DNA from: Haplodiscus bocki
Lineage: Eukaryota
DNA length: 64,000 nt
Reading direction: 5' to 3'
Assembly: GCA_965655095.1 (NCBI GenBank)
Contig: OZ296651.1
Span: forward strand, 12,524,001-12,588,000
Shown here: piece by piece, positions 5,479 through 37,449 of the stretch
Layout of the letters: each line of letters opens with the position of its first letter
How positions within the stretch are numbered: the stretch's first letter is position 1
Notes under the pieces: generated by a model
Told to the model about the DNA's origin: nothing
Seen by the model: the letters and a program-made list of their open reading frames with translations, nothing else
The model's database searches: none
Made by a program: the position numbers and the translations under genes

Positions 5479-6487
5479 ATGGGAAGGAGAAATGGGATAG
5501 TTTCAGATGGTGGCTCAACCATTTGCAAGGTAAGCGATACTAACATTGTTACGGGTAAAAAATACTCATTTGTTTGCAACATGTGCACTCATTGGTTTCA
5601 CGGGGGATGTGTCAAACCGTCTGAACGGCAATTCGATATCGCCACTGGCATAGTTGGATGCAAATGGCTATGTGCTTCTTGTCCACCCTCGGTCATTTTG
5701 AAACCATACGAAGGAAAACAGAACGATTTTCCTCAGGATGTGATTAACCTCGAAACTAAGATTTGTTCCGTTTAAACTTCGCTCAGAGAAGAACAAAATC
5801 TTTGTTTTCAACCGTTTCCTTTGCCAAAAAATACAAAAAACCACATTCACTATTAAAATGAAGTTTGATACTTTCTAAAGAATGCTCTTCAATGTTTAGA
5901 ACATACAATAAAAGTTCCAATCGTTAAGTATGCGACAGAAAAAAGATTTCAATCGATTCCTTTTCTCATCGAAGTTGAAAATTGTGTCACGGCAAAAACA
6001 AAAAAAATGTACTCTTCCACAATGCTAAAAACTGTTCCAAAGTGAACAGGAGAATGGAAGATACTTATTTTGGAAACCCTACAAAAACTGCACTTGGAGA
6101 AACACCCAAGGAAACTAATCGGAATATTCAAGGACCTTGCTACTGATTTTACTGATCAAAAACTGAAAAAAGAACTGAGAAGCGAAGCACTGAGCCGTTA
6201 TCAAAGGAAGGTTCGCCATCTCCCTGTATTTGAACTAGTGTTTGAATCAGAATCTGAAAACGAACTTCTCGTTTCTCCTGGAATAAATATTTCCAACATC
6301 CATTTCAAAGTTGAAGCTTAAGATACCGAATTGATATTTTACCATTTTCTACTTCTCAAAACTGGAGAAATCATGTTATCATGTTTTCTAAATGTGCAAA
6401 CGGAAACGTATTTGTGCTATCTGTGGCTATGATTCTCTTCCCAGATCTCACTATGACTATATTTGCCTATGTTCACTTAGGTAAAAA
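5479..6487 (+). pseudogene. Non-LTR retrotransposon ORF1 (PHD finger + gag-like PRE_C2HC + zinc knuckles), 5' part
   Basis: ORF 5479-5775 has a PHD pattern (C..S...CNMCTHWFHGGC...WLCASC). ORF 6070-6321 'IGIFKDL...FELVFES...GINISNIHFKVEA' is gag-like. It is followed by the knuckle remnant 'CKRKRICAICGYD' (~6395-6435). Confidence 0.65.
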
Positions 6488-6830
6488 AAGTTAGAAAGTA
6501 AATGCGGTCAGCTGAGGAGGAGGTAGAATACCCTCCCGTGTAATTAGATAGGATATAGATCTTGGCTCCCGAGTTGGGTCTTCCACTTTTGTATAAGAAT
6601 AGGCTGTATTTCGGTAATCTGTCAAGATGGGAGGTCGGAGTCAACGTTTTCAAGTATGGAATGTACAAAAATAGGAACTCGATTCATTGTATGAAAATAA
6701 GGGAAAAGTAATAAGTTAGAGGCCCGTCCATGTTAGGTTAAGATAGAGAGCCGAGTCTGGTTAGTGTTCATTTTCGCCACGGTGAGACTTTTCCGAAGAA
6801 AGTTTTTTGGAAATTTCTCCAGTGCTCCAG
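6488..6830. repeat. Left terminal inverted repeat of the Polinton-like element
   Basis: 6532-6592 matches the reverse complement of 29184-29244 at 43/61 positions without gaps (hand count). 6700-6800 also aligns with the reverse complement of ~28965-29055. Confidence 0.75.
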
Positions 6831-6934
6831 CGGAAATTTTTTACATCGTGGACTATTTATGGCGCTTGCAGATAACGATTGACGCTTTTGGGCATTGTTG
6901 CGACACAATTCGACTTAATAAAACTGTATCAATA

Positions 6935-7244
6935 TATTACATTGTTAATTCAAAAGTACATGACTGTAAAGGATGTGACTGTATTAGTTCTGGAACCATG
7001 TGCTTGAAATGTTGCTCGATGAAATTGTGCAATTCACCTCCGAGTTAGTCTGCAAAATAAAATTGGTAATGAGAGTTTACAATCATTTTTCAATGCTCAT
7101 CCTGCATTTTGCTAGATTGTGTATTTTAATAACAAAGTGTTCTTTAGGAAGAATTGAAACAGAGTTCGAAGGCAATCAACCACGGTAACTATAAATAAGT
7201 TGACGGATACGATTGATCTTCTGCTGGAGAGCAACGTTGCCCAT
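6935..7244 (-). pseudogene. Adenain-like (adenoviral-type) cysteine protease remnant
   Basis: Reads 'MGNVALQQKINRI...YRG*LPSN...MQDEH*KMIVNSHYQFYFAD*LG...LIQSHP', matching GEHW / YFADSLG / Q motifs. The segment with the catalytic Cys appears deleted. ATG at 7244 abuts the end of the capsid gene. Confidence 0.7.
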
Positions 7245-8595
7245 CTAAAGTTTTCTTTCCAGCATTCCCAAACTTGTCAACCTCAACCAAAGCTATTAGC
7301 ACTGTATTACAATGAGATCATTAGCGTGTTCCAGAGGTTAAGTAAAGTTTAGCTCCACTCTAGGTGGTTCACTAACTAGTTCTGAGTAATGAAAAATTTT
7401 CGTAACATCTTGTGTTGAAGTCAGATCAAACACTAGTACGTCTTGGTCTTAGTAATTATCAATCGGAAAGAATGGATACCTTCTTGAAAGTTCATTGTTT
7501 TCATTGTCGTAACATACAAGATACAAATAGTGGCAGCATCACAGTATACAAAACGCTCAACACTATTGAAAATTTTATTCAGTCTGAGAGCACAATTACT
7601 TATACCAGAAAAAATTTACCGCGTACGATCCAATGAAGGCAGTGTTTGTCTTCATTGCAATAGCAATCCCAGGAACTAGAGCATGGTTGAAAAAGTTTTC
7701 GTTGAAAAAATGGTTTTGTGTGGCAGGATGTATCAAAGTTTTTGCTGGAGTTTCCAGGTAATTGAAATTCATGGAAACATATGCAGGCATATCCATCCCC
7801 TTTTTGTGGTTCTCTGCCTTGACGGCAATATGACGAAAGTAAAGCGAAGAATCAACAATTACAGAAGTAACGTTGGGAATTTCGCTAATCAATTAAACTT
7901 AGGTCCTGCTCTGCTTAGTCGTAGCCTAACTTTCATAGTTCGACATAGCAAATCCAAATGGAAGGAAAAGTCACTTCTCAAATTACCATGAAACATGAAG
8001 CCATCGGGTCTAATTTGAATATTCATTCTCCTTGTAAAAAAAGAGTTAGACAAAAAAATCTCCGCAGTATCTTCCAGAATTTCAACATGCTCTGAAAAAT
8101 TCCAGTACAGAACTTCCTTGTATTCAAGGGTGGCTCCCTTGAAGTTCCGATTTTTTAAGGTTTGAGCACACAATCTATCGTAGTTGTATTATTGCTGAAT
8201 GTTGATGTACACTTCAACATAAGAAGAAACTGAATGCAACATGTTGTATACATGAGGGAACGGCGGAATTGAAGTGTCTGCCTCCCATTCCTCTGTTTTT
8301 CCTTCTGCAGTCTCTTTTCACTCTTACTTGTGCTCTTTTTTAACTTTGTTGATATTGTAAATTATGTAACCGCCACCACACATCAATTTTAGTTTCCAAT
8401 TCAAAAAAGATTGCCTCAAATCACAGTAATTGTTCCGATCCGTTTGAACTTCGAGCTCTATGCGGTTTTTTTGAGTGAGGTAGTAGGAAGTTTTTCTTAT
8501 CCATCGTACAACGAGACATCGTCAACTACTGGGATTGTCCCTCCAAGATTTCAGGGAACTGCCACAAAAAGTTGGCAGCGAAACTTTTTCGACAT
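7245..8595 (-). pseudogene. Polinton double-jelly-roll major capsid protein remnant
   Basis: Fragments include 'QTDRNNYCDLRQSF', 'LHSVSSYVEVYIN', 'GNLRSDFSFHLDLL..MKVRLRLSRAGPKF' (ORF 7889-8173), 'NENFFNHALVPGIAIAMKTNTAFIGSYAVNFFWY' (ORF 7596-7892) and 'VLVFDLTS...PRVELNFT*PL'. These match Maverick MCP motifs. Confidence 0.8.
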
Positions 8596-8599
8596 GATC

Positions 8600-9005
8600 A
8601 ATGGCAAAAGTTTATGAAAATGTTTCTACGCTACCAAACAAATTGTTTAGCAGATTTTGTTGGAATGGCTCTGCTCGCCTGTTCTTCTGCTGTGCGCCTG
8701 GGGCTCCCTTCCAAGGCTGTTTTCCGCGTGCAACTACCATTACCCAACTGTTTTCTCAGAGTTTGTCGTCCCACATTCTTTACAGCTGCCTTGCAGTATT
8801 TGTACCCTCAACATTCAGTGCAATGTCTGGCACAGCAAAATCTGACAAGACAGCACCCACACGTTTAACACTCGGAACGAAATAAGTGCGCAGAAAGTGA
8901 ACTGTGCTCCTAAAAAGAACTTGTTCAGGTGCACCAAATCATTTCTATATTGTCGACCAAACGCTCTAGAGATTAGATTCTCTACTCATTTTGATGGAAC
9001 GATGA
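8600..9005 (-). pseudogene. Small basic putative virion core protein (Polinton pVII/pX-like) remnant
   Basis: '...VPSVKRVGAVLSDFAVPDIA...KNVGRQTLRKQLGNG...'. Short and K/R-rich, and lies between the minor and major capsid genes as in Mavericks. Confidence 0.45.
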
Positions 9006-9021
9006 TGCTGCTTCTGCTATA

Positions 9022-9330
9022 TTAGAAGTGATTGTTGGAGACTTTTTCAAATATAACAGCAAGAGGAAATATAGCGAAAAAAGGACACTCTTCTGCACTC
9101 GTATCTTTCATCTCGAAACGAACACTATGGAAAAAATTTTTGAGCAGCCGTCCAAGATGTAGGTTATTAAATGTCTGGTAGCTCTTGTACTGTCCAGTGG
9201 TTATATTGTCCCCAGCTTTCATTTTTGAAATAAAGTAAACGAACTCTAATAATCTGGTTTTTGACATCCTTTTTCTCTCAACATCACCCCAGACCCATTG
9301 GCAACATTACTTCTAATATCCAACTCATAA
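9022..9330 (-). pseudogene. Polinton minor capsid (penton) protein, C-terminal fragment
   Basis: ORF 9022-9267 'RLLE...YQTFNNLHLGRLLKNFFHSVRFEMKDTSAEECPF...F' fits the mCP C-terminal pattern (Y.P+...F..I.I.L.D..G..+PF). Confidence 0.65.
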
Positions 9331-9650
9331 AATTTTTTGTTTTTGTTTCTTTTGCATCTACGGTTCCATCAGACTAGTTTTGACAAAATAGTCAAGACAT
9401 TACATTGTCCTTATCTTTTGCTTTTTTATGATTATTTGCCAGATCCATGCACCAAATTTGGCTTTTGAATAGAGCAAATGCTTTCATTTTCCTATATTTA
9501 CTCCGGGCCAGGACGAATTTTGTGTGAGGAATCCTCGAACGTGAAATCGGTTTTGCCTTGGCTACCACTAGTTTAGTACTTTTCAATGAAAAGTGCACAG
9601 GCTCACAAGCTGGACGACCGGTGATTACACTCTTTGCTGCGTCCACCGCT
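9330..9650 (-). pseudogene. Polinton retroviral-like (rve) integrase, N-terminal fragment
   Basis: ORF 9392-9646 'TKFVLARSKYRKMKAFALFKSQIWCMDLA...' then 'TVDAK..KTK'. The first catalytic Asp motif (W..DL) is present; the rest of the core is missing. Confidence 0.7.
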
Positions 9651-10379
9651 CAAGTTTTGCAAGTTACACAATTTCCATCCTCTTCAGGCTTGGCAATTTG
9701 GTTCAAAATCAGAATTGGACGTGAAGCAACAGGGTCACGTGATGTGAAGAAAACGTCTGAAACTACTGTGTATTTGGACCGCATTCTCAAGCAAAGCAAG
9801 ACGCCCGAGCTCCAATATATACACCCCCTAAATCAAATGATTGTGAATTTGAAAGCTTAATACGAGAACAAGACAAAAATGTATTTACTGATGAATCAGC
9901 TCTGGCAAAAATTTTTTTGCTCTTTTATCTTTTTGAGCGATTGAAATTGTACGTGGGATTATACACAGCTTGATCCTTTGAAAGTTCCTGCTTGGTAATT
10001 TTTGGGTTTTCCAAACTCTTGTTGTACAAAAAAACATATACGAAATCAAACTGCTCCATCTGGATATAAAGGGTTAATGACATGAAGAATAAAGACTTTT
10101 ATCAGCTGTAACCCTTTTTAGGGCGCCAAAACCTTTGGCTTCCACTTTGTTTTCTTAAATAGGGCAATCGAATTTCGTTTTGGAATTCTGTCGCCTGATA
10201 TTTTTTATCTATTGCATGTTTCCAATGAGCAGATATACTATGCAACTGCAGATAGACCTGATAAACCCTTTTGATCATAACTGAAGCAAATGATTCCTTC
10301 ATTTGTCGGGTAGTGATTGCAACACTTGGAGAATACAGAGAATAAGTTTGTTCATCGTCCAAAGACTTAAAAAGTTTCA

Positions 10380-11017
10380 ATCGTTCGGGGATACAAGGTT
10401 TTTAGGAAATGGACCCAGTTTCTGTACAGTAACCGAGTCGACAGTCTGTTCGTGACGAGAAGTCAAAGAATAACTGACCGTAGTGAACAGATGCTGCGCC
10501 TCGATACCAGTTAACTAGCGCTAATTTGACTCCCAACTGTGCACATAATGTATCGACTTGCATCATTTCACGGGTAGATATGAAAAAAAAATGTGCGTGA
10601 TTTGAAGCAATACGTCTCGCCAAGGTTTGTTTTGACGAAACAAGTTTTTTTCAAGTTGTATAGTACTCAATCCAAATTATCATCCAGGAGTATCATTCCC
10701 AAGAAGTGCTTTTGAAGTGCAACTCTATTCATGTGAATTGTTTATGATCAACAAGTAGTTTGCACTTTTGTACCATCGTTTTTCAGCAAATCGTTAATTT
10801 CAAAATTTACAAAATGATCAAACCCGAGCTTTTCAACCTCTTTCAGCATAATATCTTGATGCGGTTAGCGATGTTGATCAAAAGGATAAAATTTGTTAAA
10901 TTTTGTTCGGAATCTTCCAATTTTCTGCCAGCTGTAAGTAAAATGTGTCTTTCCCGTCTCGGAGGTAACGAACAATGAAATAAAGACGTCTTTTTTTCCA
11001 GAGAAGAATTCGGTCAT
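10380..11017 (-). pseudogene. A32-like FtsK/HerA DNA-packaging ATPase remnant
   Basis: Walker A-like 'ISLFVTSETGKT' (~10950) and a degenerate Walker B 'YLLIINNS'. C-terminus reads 'STREMMQVDTLCAQLG...WYRGAASVHYGQLFFDFSSRTDCRLGYCT' (ORF 10402-10623). Confidence 0.75.
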
Positions 11018-11383
11018 AGTCTTGGTGAGGTTAAAATGTTTGCTTATACATTACACAAAATTCCATACTAAACAACTGATTCCTCACAAGTTTTTGAACG
11101 ATGAATTTTCCAGAAGCCACCGAAACTTTGCAACAAAATGACAAAATTTCAGACAATAAAGAGAGTCAACGACATGGAACAGATTTGTCTCAAAAAAGAC
11201 CACGCGTTCCGCCCTCTTGATTGTTGTCGTAAAAGATATATTTGCCTATGCTTCCTTTACCTTCTTGATCAGTGATCTAAATTCTACGCTCAACTACTCA
11301 CTACGGGATCGCGGAAAAAAATTGACTCATTCAGAAAGATTCGATTACATAAAAAATGACAATACATTTCACAAAACAGAAAA

Positions 11384-11834
11384 CTACAACTTCAAATGGC
11401 TCAATTTCCAGTAACAAGCATTTTTCCATGCGCTCTGCACAGAAAGGTTGGGTTCATGTGTTTGAAAAAGTAACTCAAGGAAATCCACATTTCGTCAACT
11501 GTTTTTAGTCAACAAGGTATCACATCTTGATACAGTCTTTTAGTTTTTAAATTTTTCACCTATATACCCATCAAATTGCAAAGAGTCTTGTTTTTTTGTC
11601 TCTCTTTTGCAAAGCGTTCACCTTTTACTTTTGTAGGAAAAACGTTGAGAAGCTCAAGGTAATCCGAACATCCATCGCTACACACAATTCCGTAAAACAA
11701 ATTGCTTCCTTTATGGGCTGGAATATCTTTGGAGGACAAAATGGGTATCCTTAACGTTTCTCATCAATAAATCTTGTAATTCCTTCAAAAGGTTTTTATC
11801 CGGCAAGCTCAAAATTCACTACATTGCGTGACAT
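11384..11834 (-). pseudogene. Polinton accessory ORF remnant, possibly DEDD exonuclease-like
   Basis: 'MSRNVVNFELA..LLKE...FCPPK...GIVCSDG..DY...FAK...CAER' resembles the D.E / HGI.W..G / HCA pattern. It is frameshifted, and the function is inferred. Confidence 0.35.
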
Positions 11835-13099
11835 ACTGCTTCAAAGTTCAATAAAATTGAAATTGGAAGTAAAAAAAAACAGATTTACGTGAAGACAAAA
11901 AGGAAGTCCAGTCACCTTACCAAGGAAAAATGAATTTGCTCCTGGTACAATCATGTAACACTAGCCAAGACCTTTACAGTTTATGATTGCTTTGCTCCCG
12001 CAATATCAAGTAATATTGTAAAAAATCTAAACTTTTGGTAGTGGCAAAATATATACTCCTAGTACGAGACACATACCCAATGACTCCACGAAAAATAAAC
12101 TTCAGTTGGAGAACGTTTACCACCCAACAACCAAAAGCACTTAAAAACAGGTTTTTGCGAACAAAAGTACGTTCAATTGACATTTTTGCTTCCGAGTAAC
12201 AACAAAAAACGCACAATAGACCCAGTAGATCCGTTCTTGATGAAAATTGATTCTTTTAGGAACAGTTGTTTCATACAGTACAAGGCACGGTTTGAAAAAT
12301 ATGCAAACGAAAATCAACAGATTATTCAGTTTTGTCAAGAGCTTTTGGTTTTTTGTCTCTTTCCGACAAAATACATTGTCCTTCAATTACAAAATATCTC
12401 GAAAACGGTACATGACAATTTTTAGTTTGTGTGTAACTTTCATAAAAATTTTACGCAGTTTCCTCGCATTATTATACTTTGTCCACTTCAGACAAAAAGT
12501 CTCTTCTTTGGGATCAATTTTCTGAATGTTTTGTGAGTGTTCCATTGCAACTACAGTTATTGTGAAGTTTTTGGGAGAACTTTTTGGATTTAGTACAACA
12601 TGATAAAGTCCAGTTTTAGTTTCAACCTGGGCGACAGGTTTTAATTATCTTCTTTGGTTCAAATCAACGTGATTCAAATAGAAAGAAAAGTGATGAAGGA
12701 TATCAAGTTTTTTTAACAGAACATTAAAGATGGACTGACTAGCAACAGTTTGATCATATACATATCTCAATGCATCAACTAGATAGATAAACTCATGAAG
12801 TTTGTAAGTTTAAATTGTCTGTATCACTCTACAAATTTACACACACATTTTCCTTTGATTATATTTTGTCCGTTTTAGGCAAGAGTTTTCTTCTTTGGTA
12901 CCCGTCTTTCCAACGTCTTGTAATTTGCTAATTTCACTACAGTTATTGTAAATTGGTCGGTAGAAGCTTTGGAGATGTAATTACAACTTGATAAGGTCCG
13001 ATTTCTGATACGAGCTTTAGAAATAGTTTTTATTTAACTCGAATGTTCCGACTTAACCTAACTCGACTAAAAAAAACGATAACAGGTAAATGGTTGCAA

Positions 13100-13685
13100 T
13101 TACTTCTAAAAGGAGTTTTCGAAAAGTGTTTTTGATCTTACTTTCGTCACATGTAGAATTCCTTTTACCATTTAGTTACATAATTTCGTCATGTTTCTGC
13201 TTCTCACTAAAAAATTGCTGCAATTTCTCTTCCTCCTTCCTTCTTGGAAAAAATCGAACCTCAGCATACAAACTCACTAGCTTGCCCACATTGTACCGCA
13301 ACATAGTCACACCTAATTTTCTGTTTAGACAATCCACGAAGTCAGCTCTGGGCCAGTTTAAATTTTAATCTCTGTCTGTGGACCTGGTTGGTATCATCAC
13401 TGGTGATAAGCTTCCTTCTCTACCAAAGCTCTCTGCTGAGTTGACCAGCTGACTCTTCAATTGCATGGACTGGTTGAAACCTGATTTTTCCCTTGCAATT
13501 CTTCGTACCAGTCAAAAAGATTTCTGTCAACTTTCTTGAAAAATTTTGAGTTTTCTAACGAAGTAGTTGGAGTCATTTTCTGTCAAAGAATGCGTTTAAA
13601 CCTAACTTGATGTTTTGGTGTTTTCCAAAGTCCACAAAACTGGTACCAGTTGACGTTTTTAAAGAAGCAGTAGTGATTTGAGGCT
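13100..13685 (-). pseudogene. Polinton accessory ORF remnant, possibly PC4/Whirly-like ssDNA-binding protein
   Basis: 'FVDFGK...NDSNY...F...FNQSMQLKSQL...' and 'RKLGVTMLRYNVGKLVSLYAEVRFFPRRKEEEKLQQ' form two beta-rich + helix units reminiscent of the PC4 fold. By-eye call only. Confidence 0.35.
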
Positions 13686-14924
13686 TGGGTTAAGTTTGAT
13701 GTGATAGAGCGACGGTAGCTAAAGGAACTGATATTATTTTGAGAAACAAAGTTAAAGAAGGATCCTGGACCTGCAATTTGTTGCCTAATATGCTTTTTTC
13801 TTGGTCATTGGCACTTGATGTTTCCACGTAAGGATATTTGTGACGTTTTTGAACTCTGCTGGTTGTTTTCACGTGGTTTTTCTGTTTATGGAAAATATTT
13901 ATTTTGTTGGTAACAAAAAATAGTGCTCCTTTGTTTTTCAGATGCTTTCATTCAAAAAAAACTGAACACTTAGCGAGCAGCTGCAATGTTACAAGTGATG
14001 CCTAAAACTTTGGCAAATTTTTCAGAAAACAGTTTTTGTATTTCACAAACTCTTAAGAAAAATCACAATTTGAGTAGAGACTACTGTTTTGCCCGCCACG
14101 ATGACAATATGTTCGTTCTGCCCGATTGCAAATATCATAATTCACTTCCAGGTGGTGTTAAAGCCTTGGTAGAGAAACTGGACGCAATGTGCTTCACTTA
14201 TCAACTAAGTGACTGCCTCCACACATTTGTCAACCTTCGCTTCAGTGGAAAAATTCTGCTGGGTCTTGTCTTTGCATGAAGATTTGAGCAAATTGAAAAG
14301 ACTAAATTTGGATTGGAATTTAAAAATAAAGTAAACTGTTTTCTCGATGGTTATGATAATATTATCAAAAATTTAGTAAATTTCATAAAACATTCTTTTT
14401 ACTTAACCATTTTTTCAATTCCATAGAGACCTGTGAAGGTCAGTGGATAGAGCAAATGAAAAGGCCATCACAGCCACCATCAATCTCAGACCAAGGATGA
14501 AACTATCGAATAAAGAGACTCCACTTTTTGTTAGAAATTTAAAAAGTGGCCTTCCTTACATTCTGTTTTCAAATTTGACATCTTCAGGCTAGAACCAATT
14601 TTTACAAGGCATCAGATTTGGACTTGATTTTCCTCGTTCACCAGACTTCAAATTAAATATTTGCAAGGCTTCAGGTTTTGATATAGAAGTTTTTCGCCTC
14701 CTGAGATTTTGAAATGATTGAATTTTAAGACGTGAGTTTTTGAAGTGATCTTTTTGAGAATCACGTTTTCAAGAAAAAATAGTTTCTAAAAAAATATTTT
14801 TAGGTTTTTTAAAAATAAGATTTTGTAATGAAGTTCGCACTTAAAAATGAAAAATCACGATTTGACTCAATTTACTGCGCAAAAACGATTTTGTTTCAAA
14901 TTCTGTGCTTTTTCAAAAAGCATG

Positions 14925-17900
14925 ATTTTTAAGCAAACTTTTTCAAACAAAACTTTATGAATTTTTTTGGTGGTTTTTTGAAACAATTTCAGTCTTAGGA
15001 TTCAGATTTTGAGCTCTTACTTTTATAGGCATACGAAAATTGAAGTAATATTTGTACAACGTGTCAGCAGATTTTGAAATGAAATTCTTACAACGGGACG
15101 ATTTTGATTTGAAAGTTCTCCATCTCTTCTAATGGTAAGGGATAACATAGCTCCACCTCACGAACTTTTCACAATGTCTTCCGACAAAAATATAAACATT
15201 GCACCAGCAAACAACAGAAATCAGACAACTAAAACAAATAGCCACAAAGAAATAAAACTACAGTTGATCACAAACGGTGGAACTCCATCCACTGCTACGG
15301 GCTGCCAAAGATCACTCAACTAATCAACCGTGGCAACTGTTTCGTTGACTCGTCCGTCCAGTAAATAGGTTTTTTGAAAGAATTCAAAACTGAAGCGCAA
15401 TCCTTTCTTTTTACTCTCCATCGGTAACAATCAGGAAACCACTGGATACAAGTCTGTTATAAGTTGTTGGAATGTTGGTTGAAGATGCTGACTGGACAAA
15501 GAATCCCTATGGCGGTTGTAGTTGAGAGACATGGGAGCTGCCGGATCCTCGTCCCATTCACTGTACGGGTTCCAAACGATTTTTAGAGGTATTCATTTCA
15601 TCAATAGAACAGTTTTATTGATCGTTACTTGTGAGCCACTTCGGTTTTGCACAGGTTGTGGAACATTTTTACGATTATAATTGATCTGTCCGACTTTTGT
15701 GGAAACTTCAGCGTAAAAAGTTTTCCCACAATCAAAGTTTACATACGTCACGTTGTTCTCTTCATCAATGAACTGGACCAAGTCATCGAAGGAAACCGTC
15801 TTCTTGAAAAAAAGACCACACCATGATATTGAGTCAACTTCCGACGCATAATGAAAGAAAATTCTATCAATGTCGAATCTTAAGGAGAGTCTTGGGTTTC
15901 GTTTTAAAAAAACATCGCTTAATGGCAAAAAAGTCAAAGTCGACGAGGATTTTCAAGCAAACTTCTTCAAACAAAAACTTCTGGACTTTTTCAACCGAAA
16001 TTTGAAACAATTTCAGTCTAAGGATTCAGATTTTGAACTATTACTTTTATAGGCTGCCGAAAAGTGAAGTATTATTTTTACAACTTGTCAGCAGATTTTG
16101 TAATGAAATTCTTACAACGGGTCCGATTTTGATTTGAAATTTTTCCATCTCTTCTAATGTTAAGGGATATCATAGCTCCAACACACGATCTTTTCACAAC
16201 GTCTTCCGCCAAATTAATGTGAACAATTACAACCGAAAATATCTTCGTCAGCTAGATAATAGCAATCCCCGTCCAAGTTCAAACAAAAGTTGCTGTGCTC
16301 ATTTTCACAGTCGTTTTGAGATTTGATTGCTTAGTCTTGCTTTTGACTACTTTTTGAATAGGATTTTAATAAAATCACACATTAAGTTAACATGGAAATA
16401 CATGCACAGTTTTACCTTTTCGAACCGATTCAGGTTATTTTACTTCAACCAACAAAACAGAGGAGTGGAAGGTATGCCCAGCGTTCGAAAAAAAGAGAAA
16501 AAGTTTAAAAAAATGTTTTTGAGCTCTTTCCACAAGACAGATTCACCACAAATGAGTGATTCAAAAACTGTAGAAAGAATCGAGCACCTTATAAAGACTA
16601 GTTTTGAACTGGATTGAAAAAAATTGTGCGTTACATTTTAGATAGTTATGGTACTTATAGGTTTGATTTGATATACTTTAGACTAAAATCTCTACATAAT
16701 AAATTTGTTTTCAATTCCAAAAAATTCCGTAAATATTGTTTGGGTAGAGCAAATAATGGCCATCACAGCCATCACAGCCATCATCAGTCCCACAAAACTG
16801 ATGGAATCAAAAATTAAACGGACTCAACCGATTAACAGGAAAACAAAATTGAACATACCGCTAATTCTTCTTTCTATTTACAGAATATCATGGTAGCACC
16901 TGAAAACCAAGTTGAAAATCAGATGCTGACGTGGAAATTTTAAAACAAGTCAGAAATAGAATTGAGAAATTTTCGTCTTGTCAGATTTTTATTCGAAATC
17001 TTTTGCCAAAATCAAGTTTGGGGATGAGGTTATTTTTGAATATCAGTTTTTTATTCGAAGCTTTGGTAAAAACATATCAGATTTTGAACAAAAAGTACAT
17101 CTAAAGAACCATGTTATGATTAAATATACTCCAAAGAAGAATCTTTTTGTTTCACTTTTCGCGCTTTTTCAAAAGGCATGAGTTTCCGGGAAATTTTTAT
17201 AGAAAAAGTTGGATATTGAGTAAATCCTTTTCCGAAAATCCGAATTTGAGTTAAAAAATTTCACAGCGTGTCAAATTTTGAATAGGAACTTTTACAATAT
17301 GTCAAGTTTTGTAATGAAATTTTTACAACGTGCCAGATTTTTGTCAGCTCGTTCTACAAGCGTCGTTTCTTGGATCATCTTTCCAACAGGTGTCAGCTTA
17401 AGAAAGGATTGTTTTACAACCTGTCAAAAATTGAGTCTACCTTCTTTGCAGTATGCTATGTTCTTGTTCAATTATCCAATTATGGTACGTTCCGGTCTTG
17501 TATGTCCAATTTGCGTGGGTTTGAACGGTAGAATTTTTGTGTGAGGATAGAAATTGAGTCACCCAGCTGTGATCAACGTAACAACACATATTGAGACAGC
17601 CAATCTGATTCGACTGTGTTCATCAGGGTACTTGGGTAGGAAGTGGTATTTAACACAGTTCTACTAGAGACTCTGGGGTTTGCAATGTACAGAGAAAAGT
17701 AGTCTGGTTTTAATTACTCGTTTTTGATGGAGTCGTGTATTAAGAGAAGGCAGAGAGCCAAACTGTTCACGTATTGAAGTAAGGAATATGGAGAAGAGGC
17801 TGAGAAGATTTGCCTATTTGTATCTCAGTTTGGTGAGCTTTTCTAATGTACTAAGAAGTGTTGCGGCATGGGCTGGTTATGGGAGTGTTACCTTACATAA

Positions 17901-20900
17901 TAGTTGTTAGTGAAGTTTTAATTCCCAAACAAAATCATCAAAGAAAACAACAACAGTAAATTTTCAGGAAAAATATAAACGTTGCACCAGCAAACAACAG
18001 AAATCAGACAACTAAAACAAATAGCCACAAAGAAATACAACTACAGTTTATCACAAACGGTGGAACTCCATCCACTGCTACGGGCTGCCAAACATCACTC
18101 AACTATTCAACCGTGGCAACTGTTTCGTTGACTCGTCCGTCCAGTAAAACGGTTTTTCGAAAGAATTCAATAATGAAGCGCAATCACTTCTTTTTAAGTC
18201 CATCGGTAACAATCAAGAAAGCACTGGATACAAGTCTGTTATAAGTTGTTGGAATGTTGTTTGAAGATACTGACCGGACATAGAATCCCGAAAGGGGTTG
18301 TTGTTGAGAGACATGGGAGCTGCCGGATCCTTGTCCCATTCACTTTACGGGTTCCAAAAGATTTTTAGAGGTATTCTTTTCATCAATAGAACAGATTTAT
18401 TGATCGTTACTTTTGAGGCACTTCGGTTTTCCACAGGTTGTGGAAACTTTTTCACGATTTCAATTCTTCTGTCTGACTTTTGTGGAAACTTCAGCGTAAA
18501 AAGTTTTCCCACAATCAAAGTTTACATACGTCACGTTGTTCTCTTCATCAATGAACTGGACCAAGTCATCGAAGGAAACCGTCTTCTTGAAAAAAAGACC
18601 ACACCATGATATTGAGTCAACTTCCGACGCATAATGAAAGAAAATTCTATCAATGTCGAATCTTAAGGAGAGTCTTGGGTTTCGTTTTAAAAAAACATCG
18701 CTTAATGGCAAAAAAGTCAAAGTCGACGAGGATTTTCAAGCAAACTTCTTCAAACAAAAACTTCTGGACTTTTTCAACCGAAATTTGAAACAATTTCAGT
18801 CTAAGGATTCAGATTTTGAACTATTACTTTTATAGGCTGCCGAAAAGTGAAGTATTATTTTTACAACTTGTCAGCAGATTTTGTAATGAAATTCTTACAA
18901 CGGGTCCGATTTTGATTTGAAATTTTTCCATCTCTTCTAATGTTAAGGGATAACATAGCTCCAGCACACGATCTTTTCACAACGTTTTCCGCCTAATTAA
19001 TGGTGAACAAAAACAACCGAAATTATCTTCGTCAGCTAGATAATAGCAATCCCCGTCCAAGTTCAAACAAAAGTTGCTGTGCTCATTTTCACAGTCGTTT
19101 TGAGATTTGATTGCTTAGTCTTGCTTTTGACTACTTTTTGAATAGGATTTTAATAAAATCACACATTAAGTTAACATGGAAATACATGCACAGTTTTACC
19201 TTTTCGAACCGATTCAGGTTATTTTACTTCAACCAACAAAACAGAGGAGTGGAAGGTATGCCCAGCGTTCGAAAAAAAGAGAAAAAGTTTAAAAAAATGT
19301 TTTTGAGCTCTTTCCACTAGACAGATTCACCACAAATGAGTGATTCAAAAACTGTAGAATGAATCGAGCACCTTATAAAAACTAGTTTTGAACTGGTGAA
19401 CTGGATTGAAAAAAATTGTGCGTTAAATTTTAGATAGTTATGGTACTTATAATTTTGATTTGAAATACTTTAGACTAAAATCTCTACATAATATATTTGT
19501 TTTCAATTCCAAAAAATTCCGTAAATATTAATGGCTGGAGCAAATAATAGCCATCACAGCCATCACAGCCATCATCAGTCCCACAAAACTGATGGAATCA
19601 GAAACTAATTGGACTCAACCGATAATCAGGAAAACAAAATTGAACATATCCCTAATTCTTCTTTCTTTTTACAGAATATCATGCTAGCGCCTGAAAACCA
19701 AGTTGAAAATCAGATGCTGACGTGGAAATTTTAAAACAAGTCAGAAATAGAATTGAGAAATTTTCGTTTTGTCAGATTTTTGTTTGAAATCTTTTTCGAA
19801 AATCGATTTTGGAGATGAGGTTTTTTTTGAATATCAGTTTTTTATTCGAAGCTTTGGTAAAAACATATCAGATTTTGAACAAAAAAATACATCTAAAGAA
19901 CCATGTTATGACTAAATAAACTCCAAAGTAGAATCCTTTTGTTTCAGGTTTCGCACTGTTTCAAAAGGCATGAGTTTCCAGGAACTTTTTATGGAAAAAG
20001 TCGGCTTTTGAGTAAATCCTTTTCCGAAAATCAGAATTTGAGTTAAAAATTTCACAGCGCGTCAAATTTTGAATTTGAACTTTTACAGTATGTCAAGTTT
20101 TGTAATAAAATTTTTACAACGTGCCAGATTTTAAGTCAGCTCGTTCTACAACCGTCGTTTCTTGGATCATCTTTCCAACACGTGTCAGCTTAAGAATGGA
20201 TTGTTTTACAACCTGTCGAAAATTGAGTCTACTTTCTTTGCAGTATGCTATGTTCTTGTTCAATTATCCAATTATGGTACGTTCCGGTATTGTATGTCCA
20301 TTTTGCGTGGGTTTGAATGGTGGAATTTTTGTGTGAGGATAGAAATCGAGTCACCCAGCTGTGATCAACGTAACAACACATTGAGACAGCCAATCCGATT
20401 CGACTGTGTTCATCACGGTACTTGGGTAGGAAGTGCTATTTAACACAGTTCTACTAGAGACTCTGGGGTTTGCAATGTACAGAGAAAAGTAGTCTCGTTT
20501 TAATTACTCGTTTTTGATGGAGTCGTGCATTAAGGGAAGGCATAGAGCCAAACTGTTCACGTATTGAAGTAAGGTATAGGGAGAAGAGGCTGAGAAGATT
20601 TGCATATTTGTATCTCAGTTTGGTGAGCTTTTCTAATGTACTAAGAAGTGTTGCGGCATGGGCTGGTTATGGGAGTGTTACCTTACATAATAGTTGTTAG
20701 TGAAGTTTTAATTCCCAAAGAAAATCATCAAAGAAAACAACAACAGTAAATTTTCAGGAAAAAATATAAACGTTGCACCAGCAAACAACAGAAATCAGAC
20801 AACTAAAACAAATAGCCACAAAGAACAACAACTACAGTTCATCACAAACGGTGGAACTCCATCCACTGCTACGGGCTGCCAAAGATCACTCAACTATTCA

Positions 20901-23900
20901 ACCGTGGCAACTGTTTCGTTGACTCGTCCGTCCAGTAAAACGGTTTTTCGAAAGAATTCAATAATGAAGCGCAATCACTTCTTTTTAAGTCCATCGGTAA
21001 CAATCAAGAAAGCACTGGATACAAGTCTGTTATAAGTTGTTGGAATGTTGTTTGAAGATACTGACCGGACATAGAATCCCGAAAGGGGTTGTTGTTGAGA
21101 GACATGGGAGCTGCCGGATCCTTGTCCCATTCACTTTACGGGTTCCAAAAGATTTTTAGAGGTATTCTTTTCATCAATAGAACAGTTTTATTGATCGTTA
21201 CTTTTGAGGCACTTCGGTTTTCCACAGGTTGTGGAAACTTTTTCACGATTTCAATTCTTCTGTCTGACTTTTGTGGAAACTTCAGCGTAAAAAGTTTTCC
21301 CACAATCAAAGTTTACATACGTCACGTTGTTCTCTTCATCAATGAAGTGGACCAAGTCATCGAAGGAAATCGTCTTCTTGAAAAAAAGACCACACCATGA
21401 TATTGAGTCAACTTCCGACGCATAATAAAAGAAAATTCTATCAATGTCGAATCTTAAGGAGAGTCTTGGGTTTCGTTTTAAAAAAACATCGCTTAATGGC
21501 AAAAAAGTCAAAGTCGACGAGGATTTTCAAGCAAACTTCTTCAAACAAAAACTTCTGGACTTTTTCAACCGAAATTTGAAACAATTTCAGTCTAAGGATT
21601 CAGATTTTGAACTATTACTTTTATAGGCTGCCGAAAAGTGAAGTATTATTTTTACAACTTGTCAGCAGATTTTGTAATGAAATTCTTACAACGGGTCCGA
21701 TTTTGATTTGAAATTTTTCCATCTCTTCTAATGTTAAGGGATAACATAGCTCCAGCACACGATCTTTTCACAACGTTTTCCGCCTAATTAATGGTGAACA
21801 AAAACAACCGAAATTATCTTCGTCAGCTAGATAATAGCAATCCCCGTCCAAGTTCAAACAAAAGTTGCTGTGCTCATTTTCACAGTCGTTTTGAGATTTG
21901 ATTGCTTAGTCTTGCTTTTGACTACTTTTTGAATAGGATTTTAATAAAATCACACATTAAGTTAACATGGAAATACATGCACAGTTTTACCTTTTCGAAC
22001 CGATTCAGGTTATTTTACTTCAACCAACAAAACAGAGGAGTGGAAGGTATGCCCAGCGTTCGAAAAAAAGAGAAAAAGTTTAAAAAAATGTTTTTGAGCT
22101 CTTTCCACAAGACAGATTCACCACAAATGAGTGATTCAAAAACTGTAGAATGAATCGAGCACCTTATAAAAACTAGTTTTGAACTGGAGAACTGGATTGA
22201 AAAAAATTGTGCGTTAAATTTTAGATAGTTATGGTACTTATAATTTTGATTTGAAATACTTTAGACTAAAATCTCTACATAATATATTTGTTTTCAATTC
22301 CAAAAAATTCCGTAAATATTAATGGCTGGAGCAAATAATAGCCATCACAGCCATCACAGCCATCATCAGTCCCACAAAACTGATGGAATCAGAAACTAAT
22401 TGGACTCAACCGATAATCAGGAAAACAAAATTGAACATATCCCTAATTCTTCTTTCTTTTTACAGAATATCATGCTAGCGCCTGAAAACCAAGTTGAAAA
22501 TCAGATGCTGACGTGGAAATTTTAAAACAAGTCAGAAATAGAATTGAGAAATTTTCGTTTTGTCAGATTTTTGTTTGAAATCTTTTTCGAAAATCGATTT
22601 TGGAGATGAGGTTTTTTTTGAATATCAGTTTTTTATTCGAAGCTTTGGTAAAAACATATCAGATTTTGAACAAAAAAATACATCTAAAGAACCATGTTAT
22701 GACTAAATATACTCCAAAGTAGAATCCTTTTGTTTCAGGTTTCGCACTGTTTCAAAAGGCATGAGTTTCCAGGAACTTTTTATGGAAAAAGTCGGCTTTT
22801 GAGTAAATCCTTTTCCGAAAATCAGAATTTGAGTTAAAAATTTCACAGCGCGTCAAATTTTGAATTTGAACTTTTACAGTATGTCAAGTTTTGTAATAAA
22901 ATTTTTACAACGTGCCAGATTTTAAGTCAGCTCGTTCTACAACCGTCGTTTCTTGGATCATCTTTCCAACACGTGTCAGCTTAAGAATGGATTGTTTTAC
23001 AACCTGTCGAAAATTGAGTCTACTTTCTTTGCAGTATGCTATGTTCTTGTTCAATTATCCAATTATGGTACGTTCCGGTATTGTATGTCCATTTTGCGTG
23101 GGTTTGAATGGTGGAATTTTTGTGTGAGGATAGAAATCGAGTCACCCAGCTGTGATCAACGTAACAACACATTGAGACAGCCAATCCGATTCGACTGTGT
23201 TCATCACGGTACTTGGGTAGGAAGTGGTATTTAACACAGTTCTACTAGAGACTCTGGGGTTTGCAATGTACAGAGAAAAGTAGTCTCGTTTTAATTACTC
23301 GTTTTTGATGGAGTCGTGCATTAAGGGAAGGCATAGAGCCAAACTGTTCACGTATTGAAGTAAGGTATAGGGAGAAGAGGCTGAGAAGATTTGCATATTT
23401 GTATCTCAGTTTGGTGAGCTTTTCTAATGTACTAAGAAGTGTTGCGGCATGGGCTGGTTATGGGAGTGTTACCTTACATAATAGTTGTTAGTGAAGTTTT
23501 AATTCCCAAACAAAATCATCAAAGAAAACAACAACAGTAAATTTTCAGGAAAAAATATAAACGTTGCACCAGCAAACAACAGAAATCAGACAACTAAAAC
23601 AAATAGCCACAAAGAACAACAACTACAGTTCATCACAAACGGTGGAACTCCATCCACTGCTACGGGCTGCCAAAGATCACTCAACTATTCAACCGTGGCA
23701 ACTGTTTCGTTGACTCGTCCGTCCAGTAAAACGGTTTTTCGAAAGAATTCAATAATGAAGCGCAATCACTTCTTTTTAAGTCCATCGGTAACAATCAAGA
23801 AAGCACTGGATACAAGTCTGTTATAAGTTGTTGGAATGTTGTTTGAAGATACTGACCGGACATAGAATCCCGAAAGGGGTTGTTGTTGAGAGACATGGGA

Positions 23901-24313
23901 GCTGCCGGATCCTTGTCCCATTCACTTTACGGGTTCCAAAAGATTTTTAGAGGTATTCTTTTCATCAATAGAACAGTTTTATTGATCGTTACTTTTGAGG
24001 CACTTCGGTTTTCCACAGGTTGTGGAAACTTTTTCACGATTTCAATTCTTCTGTCTGACTTTTGTGGAAACTTCAGCGTAAAAAGTTTTCCCACAATCAA
24101 AGTTTACATACGTCACGTTGTTCTCTTCATCAATGAAGTGGACCAAGTCATCGAAGGAAACCGTCTTCTTGAAAAAAAGACCACACCATGATATTGAGTC
24201 AACTTCCGACGCATAATGAAAGAAAATTCTATCAATGTCGAATCTTAAGGAGAGTCTTGGGTTTCGTTTTAAAAGTACATCGCTTATGGGCAAAAATGTC
24301 AAAGTCGACGAGG
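14925..24313. repeat. Head-to-tail tandem array inside the Polinton: one deleted unit plus three ~2.79-kb units
   Basis: The identical junction 'gtcgacgagg|attttcaagcaaac' occurs at 15948/9, 18731/2 and 21522/3, and the array ends at 24313. Units are 2783, 2791 and 2791 bp. The first unit (14925-15948) lacks ~1.75 kb internally. The ORF track repeats with the same offsets. Confidence 0.95.
17255..17435. repeat. Degenerate ~31-bp minisatellite (ACAACGTGTCAGATTTTG...) within the Polinton, repeated in each array unit
   Basis: 'cacagcgtgtcaaattttgaataggaacttt / tacaatatgtcaagttttgtaatgaaatttt / tacaacgtgccagattttt'. Related 'tcagattttg' units are scattered over 14600-15110, 16020-16140 and 16900-17250. 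Confidence 0.7.
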
Positions 24314-26420
24314 TTGAGCATTGAATGTTGTTCAAAGGCAGACAAATTCGCGAAGTTTCACCTGCAGATGTTTATGTTGGTAGCTCGGAGACATCAGTTG
24401 TTGTTGAGAACGATTTCTAAAGAATCGATTTTCAGAGTTGCCGTTGCTGCTTTTAAACTTGTTAAACTTTCAACCAAGTGATAGGTATCTACTGGTCGGA
24501 TATTCAATCGATCCGGTACTGTTTCAACTACTTGTTCCCGTGAGTTTACAACATGCTGGCCGGACGGCAATATTCTTACTTTGTTGCGAAAGAGTTGTTT
24601 GGAATAACGAAAATTTTTTCACTCGTGTCGTTGGTTGAAGGTGTTTCTTTGATAACTTTTCATGAGAATGACCGCACCGATTTCTTTTTCAATTGCTCAG
24701 GGGCACGAAGTTGTGACAAGCAATCAGGATTGTCTGTTTTCAACTTTTATTCTGAAGTCTATTAACTCTTCTAAAAAAAAACAGAAAAACGTCTCTTTTT
24801 AAGTCGCTCTTTTGAGGTGCTTTTCTTGATGACAACCGACTGGATTAAATCCATCAGACGCGGGCTCAAACTACTCGCTGCCTATAACTTCTGAAAAGGA
24901 GCCCAGATAAAGTTTTTCAACCTTAGTCGCGTATTATCTGAACCTGTGTCTCGAAAATATTGCAGCTTTTCCTGAACGTATTGTTCGTCGAAGTTGTGTT
25001 TTTCATAACTAATTTTGGAGTTTGTCAGATCATGGCCGATTCGCTTTATATCTCGCTGGATGACTTCCGAAGTATCCGAAACGGGTTTTTTCAAACTTTC
25101 TCATTTTTGGTCCTTGACACAAAAAGATTTCCATATATGGAAATTTTTTTCCTTTTTTGTCATATACACCAAAGCCTTCCCAATAAGGAAAGTCTTTCAA
25201 TTTCTGGTGTCTTAATGCAAAAAACAACCCTTTTTGTTTATCAGATTCAGTTCCTCACAAAACTACATCACTTGCAGTTATTAGTTGGGCACTTTGAGCA
25301 TCAGAGCTGCCAAAACTAGCAACGCTTTTCTTTGGAGCAATCAGATTTAAACATTTCTCTTCGGTTAGTCAAATATGAAGTTGTGGTTTAATAGTTAGAG
25401 CCTTTGAATCATGAGAATTTTTCGCTGACAAATGCTTTCTTGCTTGTTATCGTTCTAGGGCTTTTAACTTCCGCACTACAACTTTTGTGCACGCTACAAG
25501 ACATAGTTTTTTGAAAGGTTTGATCAACATTTGAAACAAAAGTTCTCACGGTAAACTCGAGAGATACATCATCAATTTGAAAAATTTACTAAACCAATGT
25601 GTCTCAACTGCAGGGAAGGTTGTTCCATTTGATTGATTACTTTTGACAGGTTGTCTTCTTAGCGGGTGGAAAAGACTCCCATTGAATTATTCTCTCAAGT
25701 AGACTGTCACGATTTTAAAGAATTTTGCTTCAACTGACTATTTTCATCCAACAAAACGTTTCTGCTTGAGAAGACTAGAATTTTTTCAATCAGTTTTCTC
25801 CTTTAACCATATGTCGGCTGCTAAGAAAGAAGAATTGATTGAAAGCTCTTTTTACAATTTTGTGTATCGAAACTCCTGCGTATGAATAATTGAATCAGTT
25901 TTTTGTCAAGGTGATTTGAATGTGCCCTTCTTGTTACGGTCTTTCCATTTATGGTAAAAAGTAATGAGTGACTCTTGCGACATATTTTTTAATCATTTTC
26001 TCTGTTGTGGTCAAAATGATATGGTCTTCACAATTTTGTTAAAACTAATCCGTGTAAACTTTTTCACTAAAATACCTTCCCTCGATCACAACATAAATAA
26101 ATTTGTGAGGACTGTGGTTCTGAAAAAACAAAGGGGAACTGTGTATAATTCAAGAAAAGATTCTTTTTTGGGACCCTGTGCAGCTCTGAAGGATTCCTCT
26201 TCTGAACAATTTCGCACAACGAAATCTCTTTGAATCTTTCTCTCTCCCAAACTACTGTTGAACTATGCAACTTCACTATCCTGTGACAACACTTAGACAT
26301 TATCGAACGAGTAACTCCTGTTAAAAGCTGGAATTTGCGTTCATTCGGACAGGAAAATGAAATTGTCTCCTTCAAGCACTTACTGCCTTGATAAAATTGG
26401 AAACCTATATTCCGACTCCG
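23900..26420 (-). pseudogene. Cluster of decayed Polinton accessory ORFs of unknown function
   Basis: Co-oriented broken ORFs 24042-24335, 24882-25094, 25030-25227 and 26067-26375. The 24042-24335 reading frame continues past the array boundary only in the last unit. Confidence 0.4.
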
Positions 26421-28929
26421 AACTCTGCTAGCTTGATTAGTGATAACACGCTTTGTAGTATTTTAGAGTCTTGTCATGCATTTCTACTCTTATTATCTTT
26501 TAATTTGAAAGTTGTTGGTTTTGTTCTGCTTTATTGAAAGGAAGTTTCATCAGTTTTGTTAGTGATTGGGCCAGAGTTGAGAGAAACTATGTTTCGAGGA
26601 CATTATCTGATGGTTTGCGTCTCCAGCTGCTAACCGAAAAAACCTAAGTGTTAAATATTCTGTGGCTGAATGTTTCTGAGAACCAGAAATCGAAACACGG
26701 TTATAAAAATTTTGGAAGTCGTGTGTTAGTAAAAAGCCAGGTGTTCATCCATCTATGGGAGCGCTTTTCTTTTTTCGTTAAGGACAACGTTTTTGAAATA
26801 TGAATGACCATTGTACTCGTTCCACCATTTTTTCTCTGTACATTGATCACTCCCAGCTAGCAGCCGTTTATGGAAACATTTCCCAAATCTGGTACCCGTG
26901 ACCCAGCTTGCAAATCCTGATTGGTCACTAAAAGTTCCTTTTACGGTAGAAAATCGTAGTCCCCACCCATAAAGGTTACGTTAATTGGACGCACTTAAGC
27001 CAAGTCTTGTTTTGTTTGAGAATTACGTGAGAAGCCAACCTGGTTGCAGCAACGATGGCTGTTGTTACAATACGAGCAAAACCCAATTTCTATTCAGTTT
27101 TTTCACATAAAAAATTGTTCAAGTCCGCAAATCGCTGTGGAGAAATATAGTTGCTGAAAATTATTGCGTGTAGATCCATACTTTGAAATACTGATTCTTA
27201 CATGGTCGCCTTTAGCATACACTCATTGAGTTAAGTTGAGGAGTCCTACTACAACGTGTAGAACTTCACGGTCAATGGGAATGTGTGTACAAAGAAAGGA
27301 CATCTTTTCCATATCGTACAGATAGCTGTAATTTTCAGCCAACTCTTTAGATGATTTGAACGAAGGCCTAGTTTACCAGAAGAGATTATTCAGAAATTAT
27401 TTCTAGAAGCACATCTACTCAACTCCGAAAAGACGATAACTTATAAAGGGAAGGCTGACAGGTTGGTTGCAATGCATCACTATTATAAATGAATGTAAAC
27501 ATCAAAAAGTGTCCTGGTGACTGATTGAATGATTTTTTGACCAAGTTGGTGACTTTGATGGTTATTTAGTGTAGTTCTTTATTAAAAGTTCAAATCACTT
27601 CTGTTTTTGGAAGACTTAGGACCTCAAAAATTAGTCTCAACAGCTAACTCGTAGAGATTGGTCTGATAACTAAACTTTATGTTCTATTTTCGAAAAAATC
27701 TTTAAAGCTGGCTGCTATTTAATTCTTTTTGCAATCCTAAATTTAGCAAATTTCTTTTTTGTTTTGAGTCTACCGCACGCAATCACTTGCGTTCTAACAT
27801 GTTTTGAGGCACCTATCGGCAAAAATGAAATTCCGGTCTTTCCGATTTTGTGGCTAAAACTACTTCAAACCATCGCCCACTTTCACACAAGTACTGTCGG
27901 CATTAAATAAGATTCAAATAAAGAGCAAGGGTAAGAGTGGTCAGTTCGTTTTTCGGCCAAATAAACTTGCCCCCGAGTAACACGTTAGTCACTGTGCCTA
28001 TATGCCAATTGAATTTCAAACTAGGATTCGCATAACAAAAATTTTGTACGCTTGCCTGATTGGAAATCACCAGATTTAGGCAGCCATTCCACAAACAAAC
28101 GGCTGAAAACACACTTTCCTGTTGTCTTCCAAAACGTTTTAGCGGTGTGCTACATTAGTGCAGACACCGTGGCTGAATGTTGTGCATTGAAACCAATTTT
28201 CTCTGTCAAATTAATGATTCTTCCCCGCAAAAACTATGTTTCATTGTCATGTTGCAACGCAAAACTCTGTATTTTCAGTTATTTAGTCGGAAACAACCGC
28301 AAAAAATACCTTGGATTAAATATTCAGACCGGTTTTTGAGACAAAACGGAAAAATTTTACGCAAATTCGAAGATTTTTTTGTCCACCAGTTGACCTCTAT
28401 GTCTGTGTTCAGAAATTTAGGACCTTGAATCAGTCACTTTTGCTTATCAAAGACCTTTTAAATCACAATTTACCTTCTTGCATCTTTCAGCTTGTGTTCT
28501 TTTTGTTTTATGCGAGTACTAGAAACAGGACAGGTTTTGGTTAACATCAGAACAAAAGTTGCGACAGTAACCACTGTATCATTTGGTTCAAGGAAGTCCA
28601 CTTTATCTCAACGTAAAGTGTGTCAAAAGACAAAATTAGCAATAAAACTGCAGGTGCTTGTGATGAGTAATTGGGTAATTCATGTTTGTACTCTCCCAAA
28701 TTAAATTGACTGTCGGAAGACAAATATAGTATTAATAATTATCAAAAGTTAAAATCAACACTAATAAACGGAATTGTCACCAGAATCTGATAATTTTACG
28801 TTGCCAACGTTTATTAGCATGGCCATGGAGTATCGATAGACGTGACAATTACGCCCAGGTGTCATATTATTCCCGCCTATTTCCTAAAATTAGAGCTTAC
28901 TTCAAAAAACAACCGCCCAAATAAATTAA

Positions 28930-29289
28930 CCGCGGGTTCTCAAAAAAAACTTCGAAAAAATTTCTAAAAAGGCCTCACAGTGCAGAAAACGAACCCTATC
29001 TAGGCTGGGCTTTTTGACTAAAACGGGCAGACCCCTATCTCAATACTTTGTCCCGGCCTTTGTACAATTATTCGGCTGCCCATCTCTCTGCTTTCCTTAT
29101 CTTAATACATTGTTCCCGCATCTTAATACATTGCCGAAGCCACACCGTACCTTAATACAATTTTATCGATAGGTTATCCTAAAACATAGATGGTAGACCG
29201 AAATCAAGATCCAAGGTCTCTATTTTATCAGAATACCCGGTAGGTTCTTGGAAGCCACTCATATCCGACAAACTCACTCTCTCACTACC
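28930..29289. repeat. Right terminal inverted repeat of the Polinton-like element
   Basis: Reverse-complement match to 6488-6830. Contains three CTTAATACA motifs (29101-29160) and ends in ACTCACTCTCTCACTACC. Confidence 0.75.
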
Positions 29290-37370: not shown

Positions 37371-37449
37371 GAAGACCGAAGGTCCAAAAATTCTTCCTAA
37401 TTTATATCTGTGGTAGTCGATCTATATACGGTATAAACGGTAATTCTTG

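Follow-up and report, generated by a model that had tools for sequence, protein, structure and literature searches.

A very likely single Polinton/Maverick insertion in Haplodiscus bocki: a decayed, partly deleted and internally triplicated element

The subject of this report is a 64,000-nt stretch of DNA from Haplodiscus bocki (contig OZ296651.1, positions 12,524,001 to 12,588,000), the whole of which we call the window. Positions 6488-29289 of the window very likely hold an old, dead, single Polinton/Maverick insertion that was later partly deleted and internally triplicated. An earlier note, made from the letters alone, had placed a Polinton/Maverick-like virus here, and this identity is upheld by terminal inverted repeats (TIRs), a double-jelly-roll capsid, an adenovirus-like protease and the length: 22,802 nt, or 16,457 nt with one unit of the internal repeat counted, both within the 13-25 kb expected of such elements. 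The same note had called the element whole from end to end. It is not, as an internal deletion across the integrase and minor capsid genes has left little of either. The locus is an ordinary fossil of a known kind.

Inverted ends and target site

The boundaries of the element are given by two inverted arms and the short sequences next to them:
6488..6842 (alignment from 6476), plus strand: left TIR, decayed
28920..29289 (alignment to 29299), minus strand: right TIR, ending in GGTAGTGAGAGAG inward
6482..6487, plus strand: candidate target-site duplication, left, TAAAAA
29290..29295, plus strand: candidate target-site duplication, right, TAAACA

In a local alignment of 6476-6842 to 28920-29299 (reverse complement), 230 of the 357 columns agree (64%). 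Its score of 354 compares with a mean of 77 and a maximum of 109 in 200 shuffles, and the same pair appears in the blastn self comparison of the window at E 5e-21. When the arms were compared with other 800-nt windows (308 comparisons), non-partner windows reached at most 129, all higher scores belonged to partner windows, and no third TIR-like copy was found in the window. Both inverted ends are genuine, and their 357 columns fall within the 100-1,500 bp of the TIR length criterion. The proposed arms 22.8 kb apart are thereby corroborated. Their ungapped block, given as 43/61, is consistent with a 70-nt ungapped block at 70%, but the divergence, put at about 30%, is measured at about 36%.

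Inward from 29289, the right end shows an (AGT)2 motif with one mismatch, which is the end motif of vertebrate Mavericks (PMC8097293). The left end is more decayed at this motif. The flanks of the ends match at 5/6 positions and form a candidate target-site duplication with modest support. It is plausible but not proven, because 3 of 210 near-register end pairs equal this 5/6 match and the left end needs a 2-nt register shift.

Capsid, protease and core genes

Inside the left arm, three adjoining genes lie on one strand:
6900..7244 (lower end approximate), minus strand: adenain-like protease, broken; matched by P0272, P0280 and P0284
7245..8595, minus strand: major capsid protein, full span with frameshifts and stops; matched by P0154 and the family profile
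8600..8940, minus strand: basic core or PW-like gene, broken; matched by N-terminal parts of P0014, P0021, P0212 and P0004

The 449-residue capsid relative P0154 matches 8595 to 7305 in four pieces with 48-55% identity (E 2e-76), another relative, P0239, matches the gene at E 6e-74, and the family capsid profile reaches its position 447 of 448 at 7252. The gene is broken into four or more pieces, has 7 stops in 425 codons, and is about 49% identical to full-length relatives (48-49% in two long pieces). With its stops read as X, the capsid piece retrieved 262 representatives at E <=0.001, and a profile from 32 capsid relatives matched 4,462 proteins among 7,999 candidates scored. Among the matches listed (the best 120 of the 4,462), all are unnamed ENA proteins and 39 of the 120 measure 440-455 residues; 34 full-length relatives are 83-93% identical to P0154. 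The nearest Atlas clusters of P0239 include DJR-like_dom (PF21738, 24% of members) and Capsid_N with a score of 0.98, at a recognition of 2188 that lies below the tool's 2300 mark and amounts to moderate support. Pfam returned no match for the capsid pieces and relatives, and AlphaFold models of two relatives were of low confidence (mean predicted local distance difference test 50.0 and 29.7). At the level of sequence comparison, the predicted double-jelly-roll type of the major capsid is confirmed.

The three protease relatives, 130 residues long, match 7244 to 6952 in two frames with 44-50% identity, P0284 at E 5e-16. Peptidase_C5 forms the nearest Atlas clusters of P0284 (score 0.97); Pfam C5 on the window's protease stays below the cut-off at E 0.009, and a PDB sequence search with P0284 gave no match. 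These comparisons confirm the assignment to the predicted adenovirus-like proteases. Capsid and protease abut at 7244/5 as had been noticed, with the capsid running from 8595 to 7245 and the protease starting at 7244. The adjacent core gene shares 65.5% identity with the DNA of a related locus (L001) and owes its name to its position (PMC8097293). For the proposed minus-strand gene module, this bears out capsid, protease and core/PW-like gene; the ATPase and small open reading frame (ORF) that it also held have no significant tool match. Pfam found no family in any of 12 long frames with X at stops (6900-14400, minus strand; 24300-28900, both strands), and sub-threshold noise alone on 21 pieces and relatives.

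A deletion across integrase and minor capsid

The genes upstream of the core gene are preserved as remnants:
9025..9335 (upper end approximate), minus strand: minor capsid-like gene, C-terminal remnant
9336..9760 (ends approximate), minus strand: putative integrase, N-terminal remnant
9770..10060, minus strand: small ORF of the earlier note, seen by eye, no tool match
10290..11000, minus strand: candidate packaging ATPase remnant, with decayed Walker A/B-like words seen by eye

Residues 118-188 of P0142 match 9231 to 9025 at 48% identity (E 6e-17); by its position and a motif, we take this piece to be the minor capsid. The integrase remnant has a 35-residue match to one reference integrase (L005) around the first catalytic Asp, a match reached by 2 of 300 shuffles. 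The other two of the three distant references gave no match, and both Pfam and a homolog search with the integrase piece were empty (23 candidates, none scored, which makes it a weak negative). The remnant stops shortly past the first catalytic Asp, and most of the core is absent. The start of the integrase (about 9760, by eye) and the end of the minor capsid (9025) are about 735 nt apart, while two reference integrases alone span 360 and 369 residues; therefore the element lacks most of the integrase core along with the front part of the minor capsid. The loss seems to amount to about 1.2 kb.

The junction between the two remnants was followed in contigs from four runs (X1 to X4). The runs stem from a single study with two samples, and the source of the window may be among them. 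Single contigs span the junction in all four: 8743-15228 in each of three runs from one sample, and 9288-10438 in the second sample. It is therefore not an assembly slip.

The ATPase remnant is probable, judged by its motif-like words. Against distant ATPases, the best of nine comparisons was reached by 4 of 300 shuffles, lies away from Walker A and is not significant. A separate observation concerns three loci outside the window, L002, L003 and L009: they are giant-virus contigs (339-733 kb) in which, at about 9941-11065 of these loci, a 375-residue fragment with a Polinton-type polymerase motif is seen by eye among ankyrin-like ORFs.

The right arm and a candidate EGF-like cargo gene

The remaining part of the element is dominated by a tandem array:
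15186..24313, no strand assigned: tandem array of a 2.79-kb unit, three copies plus 763 nt (15186-17968, 17969-20759, 20760-23550, 23551-24313)
14924..15198, no strand assigned: older, incomplete copy (86%) of the part of the array immediately downstream from the EGF-like domain, together with the last residues of that domain
16196..16309, minus strand: EGF/TGF-alpha-like six-cysteine domain with an internal stop, in unit 1, found by phmmer against PDB
24400..28700, minus strand: right arm (about 4 kb), where a decayed pPolB may lie, with motif-like remnants at 25260 and 25131
12421-12611 and 12809-12999, no strand assigned: old internal direct duplicate pair, 68% (blastn E 2e-8), in an unexplained part of the element

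The polymerase pPolB together with the integrase defines Polintons (PMC10748475, PMC8502044), and the earlier gene list had omitted it. In one minus frame of the right arm, two pPolB-motif-like words at 25260 and 25131 are 47 codons apart, compared with 39-44 in three reference polymerases. The pair occurs once in the element and in none of 300 shuffles, for a pattern picked after seeing the site. A frameshift-tolerant profile of six distant polymerases scored 19.9 bits, with 12 shuffles scoring up to 22.9, and its match ends at 24930, at the C-terminus of the profile. Neither pairwise comparison of the right arm with four reference polymerases nor Pfam gave a match, and a homolog search with the candidate piece is a weak negative, as none of its 635 candidates was scored. 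Distant viral PolB, ATPase, integrase and capsid profiles found nothing in the element. Their capsid positive control also failed, and since a distant capsid profile of the same type missed even intact capsids, the negatives for pPolB say little. A pPolB remnant in the right arm is suggestive at a non-significant level. A palindrome of 30 nt (93% in the self comparison) lies at 25121-25150.

A second candidate lies within the array. The cysteine-rich piece in unit 1 matches an EGF/TGF-alpha chimera (E 1.3e-5), TGF-alpha (3e-5) and EGF (7e-5) in PDB; the 31 sequences listed are mostly EGF-receptor ligands and include EGF, TGF-alpha, amphiregulin, neuregulin and spitz. It has the six-cysteine spacing of EGF, its second interval exceeding that of the aligned sequences by one residue, and this spacing is unique across the six frames of the window. 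Pfam detected no EGF family in the domain. Toxin_35 (knottin), at E 0.003-0.7 on the same piece, fell short of the cut-off, and the EGF cysteines account for it. Frameshifted copies occur near 19050 and 21840, in units 2 and 3. The region upstream is too decayed for a signal or membrane anchor to be read, with a best in-frame hydropathy of 1.66.

Three features of the EGF-like piece fit a viral cargo gene: its position inside the inverted ends, the strand that it shares with the genes, and its equally broken state. Tentatively, we consider that such a gene may be regular cargo of an amplified invertebrate Polinton family. No long related locus was found in viral contigs or prokaryote genomes, and metagenomes gave one contig of 1,055 nt. 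A literature search combining Maverick, polinton or polintovirus with EGF found no Polinton case, with subscription papers and Repbase outside its scope; in a looser form it listed a cichlid transcriptome paper that contains the terms. The word EGF does not occur in the main text or one supplement file of PMC8502044, in one supplement of PMC8097293, or in the main texts of the preprints 10.1101/2024.03.25.586562 and 10.1101/2022.07.12.499685.

The array, the right arm or both might also be a later foreign insert, for example another repeat or a host EGF-ligand pseudogene, in which case the element might lack pPolB and the EGF-like gene would not be cargo. The non-significant polymerase match would fit such an insert, as would the fact that the family proteins retrieved match nowhere outside 6950-9231 and that few other run contigs cover the EGF-like domain at 88% likeness (depth 137-187 in X1). 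We regard it as rather unlikely, given that the EGF-like piece is intronless over the domain and shares strand and decay with the other genes, that its end recurs in the older 86% duplicate, that the runs hold many copies of parts of the unit (bins 14982-15415 and 17586-17990), and that the unit has no visible terminal repeats or transposase.

Decay and age

The reading of a single Polinton/Maverick insertion is in keeping with the state of its genes. All of them are broken, and the longest stop-to-stop ORF inside the element has 131 residues, so no core gene is open as in an intact Maverick. Divergence from L001 is nearly flat over codon positions (0.30/0.25/0.31, frame-checked), as expected without selection, and L001, too, is a fossil, with 5 stops among 190 codons. 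The arms have a corrected divergence of 0.48, or about 0.24 per arm, at which a neutral simulation keeps about 58% of residues. Multiplied by the 83-93% spread of intact capsids, this retention predicts a capsid identity of 48-54%. The observed value is 48-49%, and because the two agree, ends and genes tell one age. The old age suggested earlier for the insertion is supported.

The family is highly repeated in this organism, since contig depths added up across the capsid and core bins come to 2,700-63,500 versus 11-72 for single-copy contigs. Further multi-copy parts, whose genes are unnamed, lie in bins 11076-11509, 11944-12377 and 13246-14113, with summed depths of about 700-7,600.

This abundance lends some room to a composite origin, in which the capsid module with the left end and the right end would be two old insertions of the same family that face each other by chance. 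The identity of the arms is consistent with it: at 64% it is close to that between the window and the unrelated copy L001 (66-69%), and because the arms are no more alike than these, their divergence alone cannot show a single insertion. Against this stand the 5/6 target-duplication candidate at motif-defined ends, the lack of a third TIR-like copy in the window, the typical one-unit length and the placement of every recognised remnant on one strand, and taken together they make a composite quite improbable.

Beside the likeness of the arms, further points weigh against a single Polinton/Maverick insertion as described here. The target duplication is imperfect, one of three references supports the integrase, the ATPase has no significant match in Pfam, distant profiles or pairwise comparison, pPolB is not demonstrated by Pfam, homolog search, profiles or pairwise comparison, and the comparison with run contigs covers 5000-17990.

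Late growth of the array

The middle of the element had been read as about 10 kb of non-hallmark ORFs that might define a distinct lineage. This is not supported: a recent tandem array, built from a single 2.79-kb unit, takes up 9.1 kb; the middle is mostly repetition and the one-unit size is ordinary next to the 16.9 +/- 1.7 kb of intact vertebrate Mavericks (PMC8097293). The unit is repeated 3.3 times, with units of 2,783-2,791 nt. Units 2 and 3 are 99.5% identical, and unit 1 is 95.6% identical to either.

The array is genuine. Contig depth, a rough measure, is 135/135 in the unit versus 41-46 in flanking single-copy contigs in X1, 35/32 versus 10-13 in X2 and 108/107 versus 30-38 in X3, about threefold in all three runs. 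At 17065-17471 the contigs split into a 1x and a 2x variant, and a back-joint from 17947 to 15194 is found in the fourth run. An assembly artefact, which the near identity of units 2 and 3 and the lack of a contig spanning the array would allow, is barely credible in the face of the threefold depth, the variant split, the back-joint and the 4.4% difference of unit 1. The array was also considered as a long terminal repeat (LTR) element and rejected, as its 763-nt repeats have no TG...CA ends. The word TGYCARRTTTT occurs four times on one strand of unit 1 (16960-17345, and in the copies) and is absent from that strand in the other regions counted; run contigs link its sites to about 14929. It is possibly a repeated regulatory word of the element.

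Together, these data outline a history. While alive, the element would, as known for its family, have integrated by its own integrase with a 6-bp target duplication, been copied from its inverted ends by the protein-primed polymerase, and been packaged with the help of the ATPase, major and minor capsids, core protein and protease. After insertion it would have decayed neutrally and then undergone a deletion of about 1.2 kb that took away parts of the integrase and minor capsid genes. The array formed after gene decay, because its units share stop codons. Two late rounds of tandem duplication of the internal 2.79-kb unit would account for its growth, and their simplest mechanism would be unequal exchange between the 763-nt repeats on either side of the unit. 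The locus thus gives a clear order of events: insertion, decay, deletion and two late tandem duplications.

Surroundings in the window

The window resembles repeat-rich animal DNA. Its one intact-looking host gene is an intronless 466-residue UNC-93/MFS membrane protein at 37667-39067 (plus strand, Pfam E 1e-45). An LTR-bounded retroelement at 40368-56608 has repeats at 40368-41933 and 55047-56608 that are 97% identical, and its minus strand carries ORFs resembling reverse transcriptase and integrase. It contains a 2.08-kb tandem repeat of its own at 47696-53112 (96-98%), so internal tandem repeats look like a habit of this genome.

The left flank of the Polinton/Maverick element holds a PHD-finger remnant (5413-5775, plus strand, Pfam E 1e-6), perhaps derived from a decayed long interspersed nuclear element. 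Remnants resembling non-LTR retrotransposon endonuclease and reverse transcriptase are seen by eye at 36911-37531 and 59025-61562, both on the plus strand. A 45-nt palindrome (80% in the self comparison) lies at 56762-56806, and the single N gap, 31768-31967, is outside the element.

Comparison with known systems

The proteins of the window presumably resemble repeats annotated in acoel worms, which we treat as a lead. In an acoel genome paper, Mavericks make up 4.5% of the assembly (PMC6451197). Taken alone, the locus is of minor importance, since Mavericks survive mostly as fossils and this family has copies in better condition. The 4,462 unnamed capsid relatives, whose full-length members are 83-93% alike, suggest a Polinton radiation that is large and little described.

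Poxvirus growth factors such as vaccinia VGF push host cells to proliferate through the EGF receptor. They share with the window a small virus-borne domain resembling EGF-receptor ligands, but belong to another class of viruses, and the window's domain is broken and a candidate for cargo. Should the EGF-like gene prove regular cargo, it would be a virus-borne growth factor driving host proliferation through the EGF receptor as in poxviruses, a first for Polintons as far as our searches reach. It would link Polintons to the manipulation of host growth signalling and support the view of them as infectious viruses with an effect on host cells. Nematode Mavericks offer a precedent for host-like accessory genes inside such elements, although their cargo consists of a protease, a kinase and a fusogen (bioRxiv 10.1101/2022.07.12.499685).

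Adintoviruses (PMC8502044) are alike in being animal elements with an adenain-like protease, a double-jelly-roll capsid and an integrase (a putative remnant here), and degraded endogenous copies of them are common. The element differs from Polintons/Mavericks in general by the internal deletion, the 2.79-kb array and a candidate EGF-like accessory gene, and its pPolB is not demonstrated. Its ATPase-like remnant lies directly upstream of the module on the same strand, whereas vertebrate elements mostly use two strands, with one in X. tropicalis (PMC8097293). The decayed state is shared with 96% of vertebrate Maverick loci, and the genes as assigned here (integrase, minor capsid, PW-like, major capsid, protease) follow one another as in module 2 of the vertebrate elements (PMC8097293). 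Inverted ends of about 370 nt, a candidate AGT/AG-like end motif and a one-unit length of about 16.5 kb complete the likeness to Polintons/Mavericks (PMC8097293; PMC10748475).

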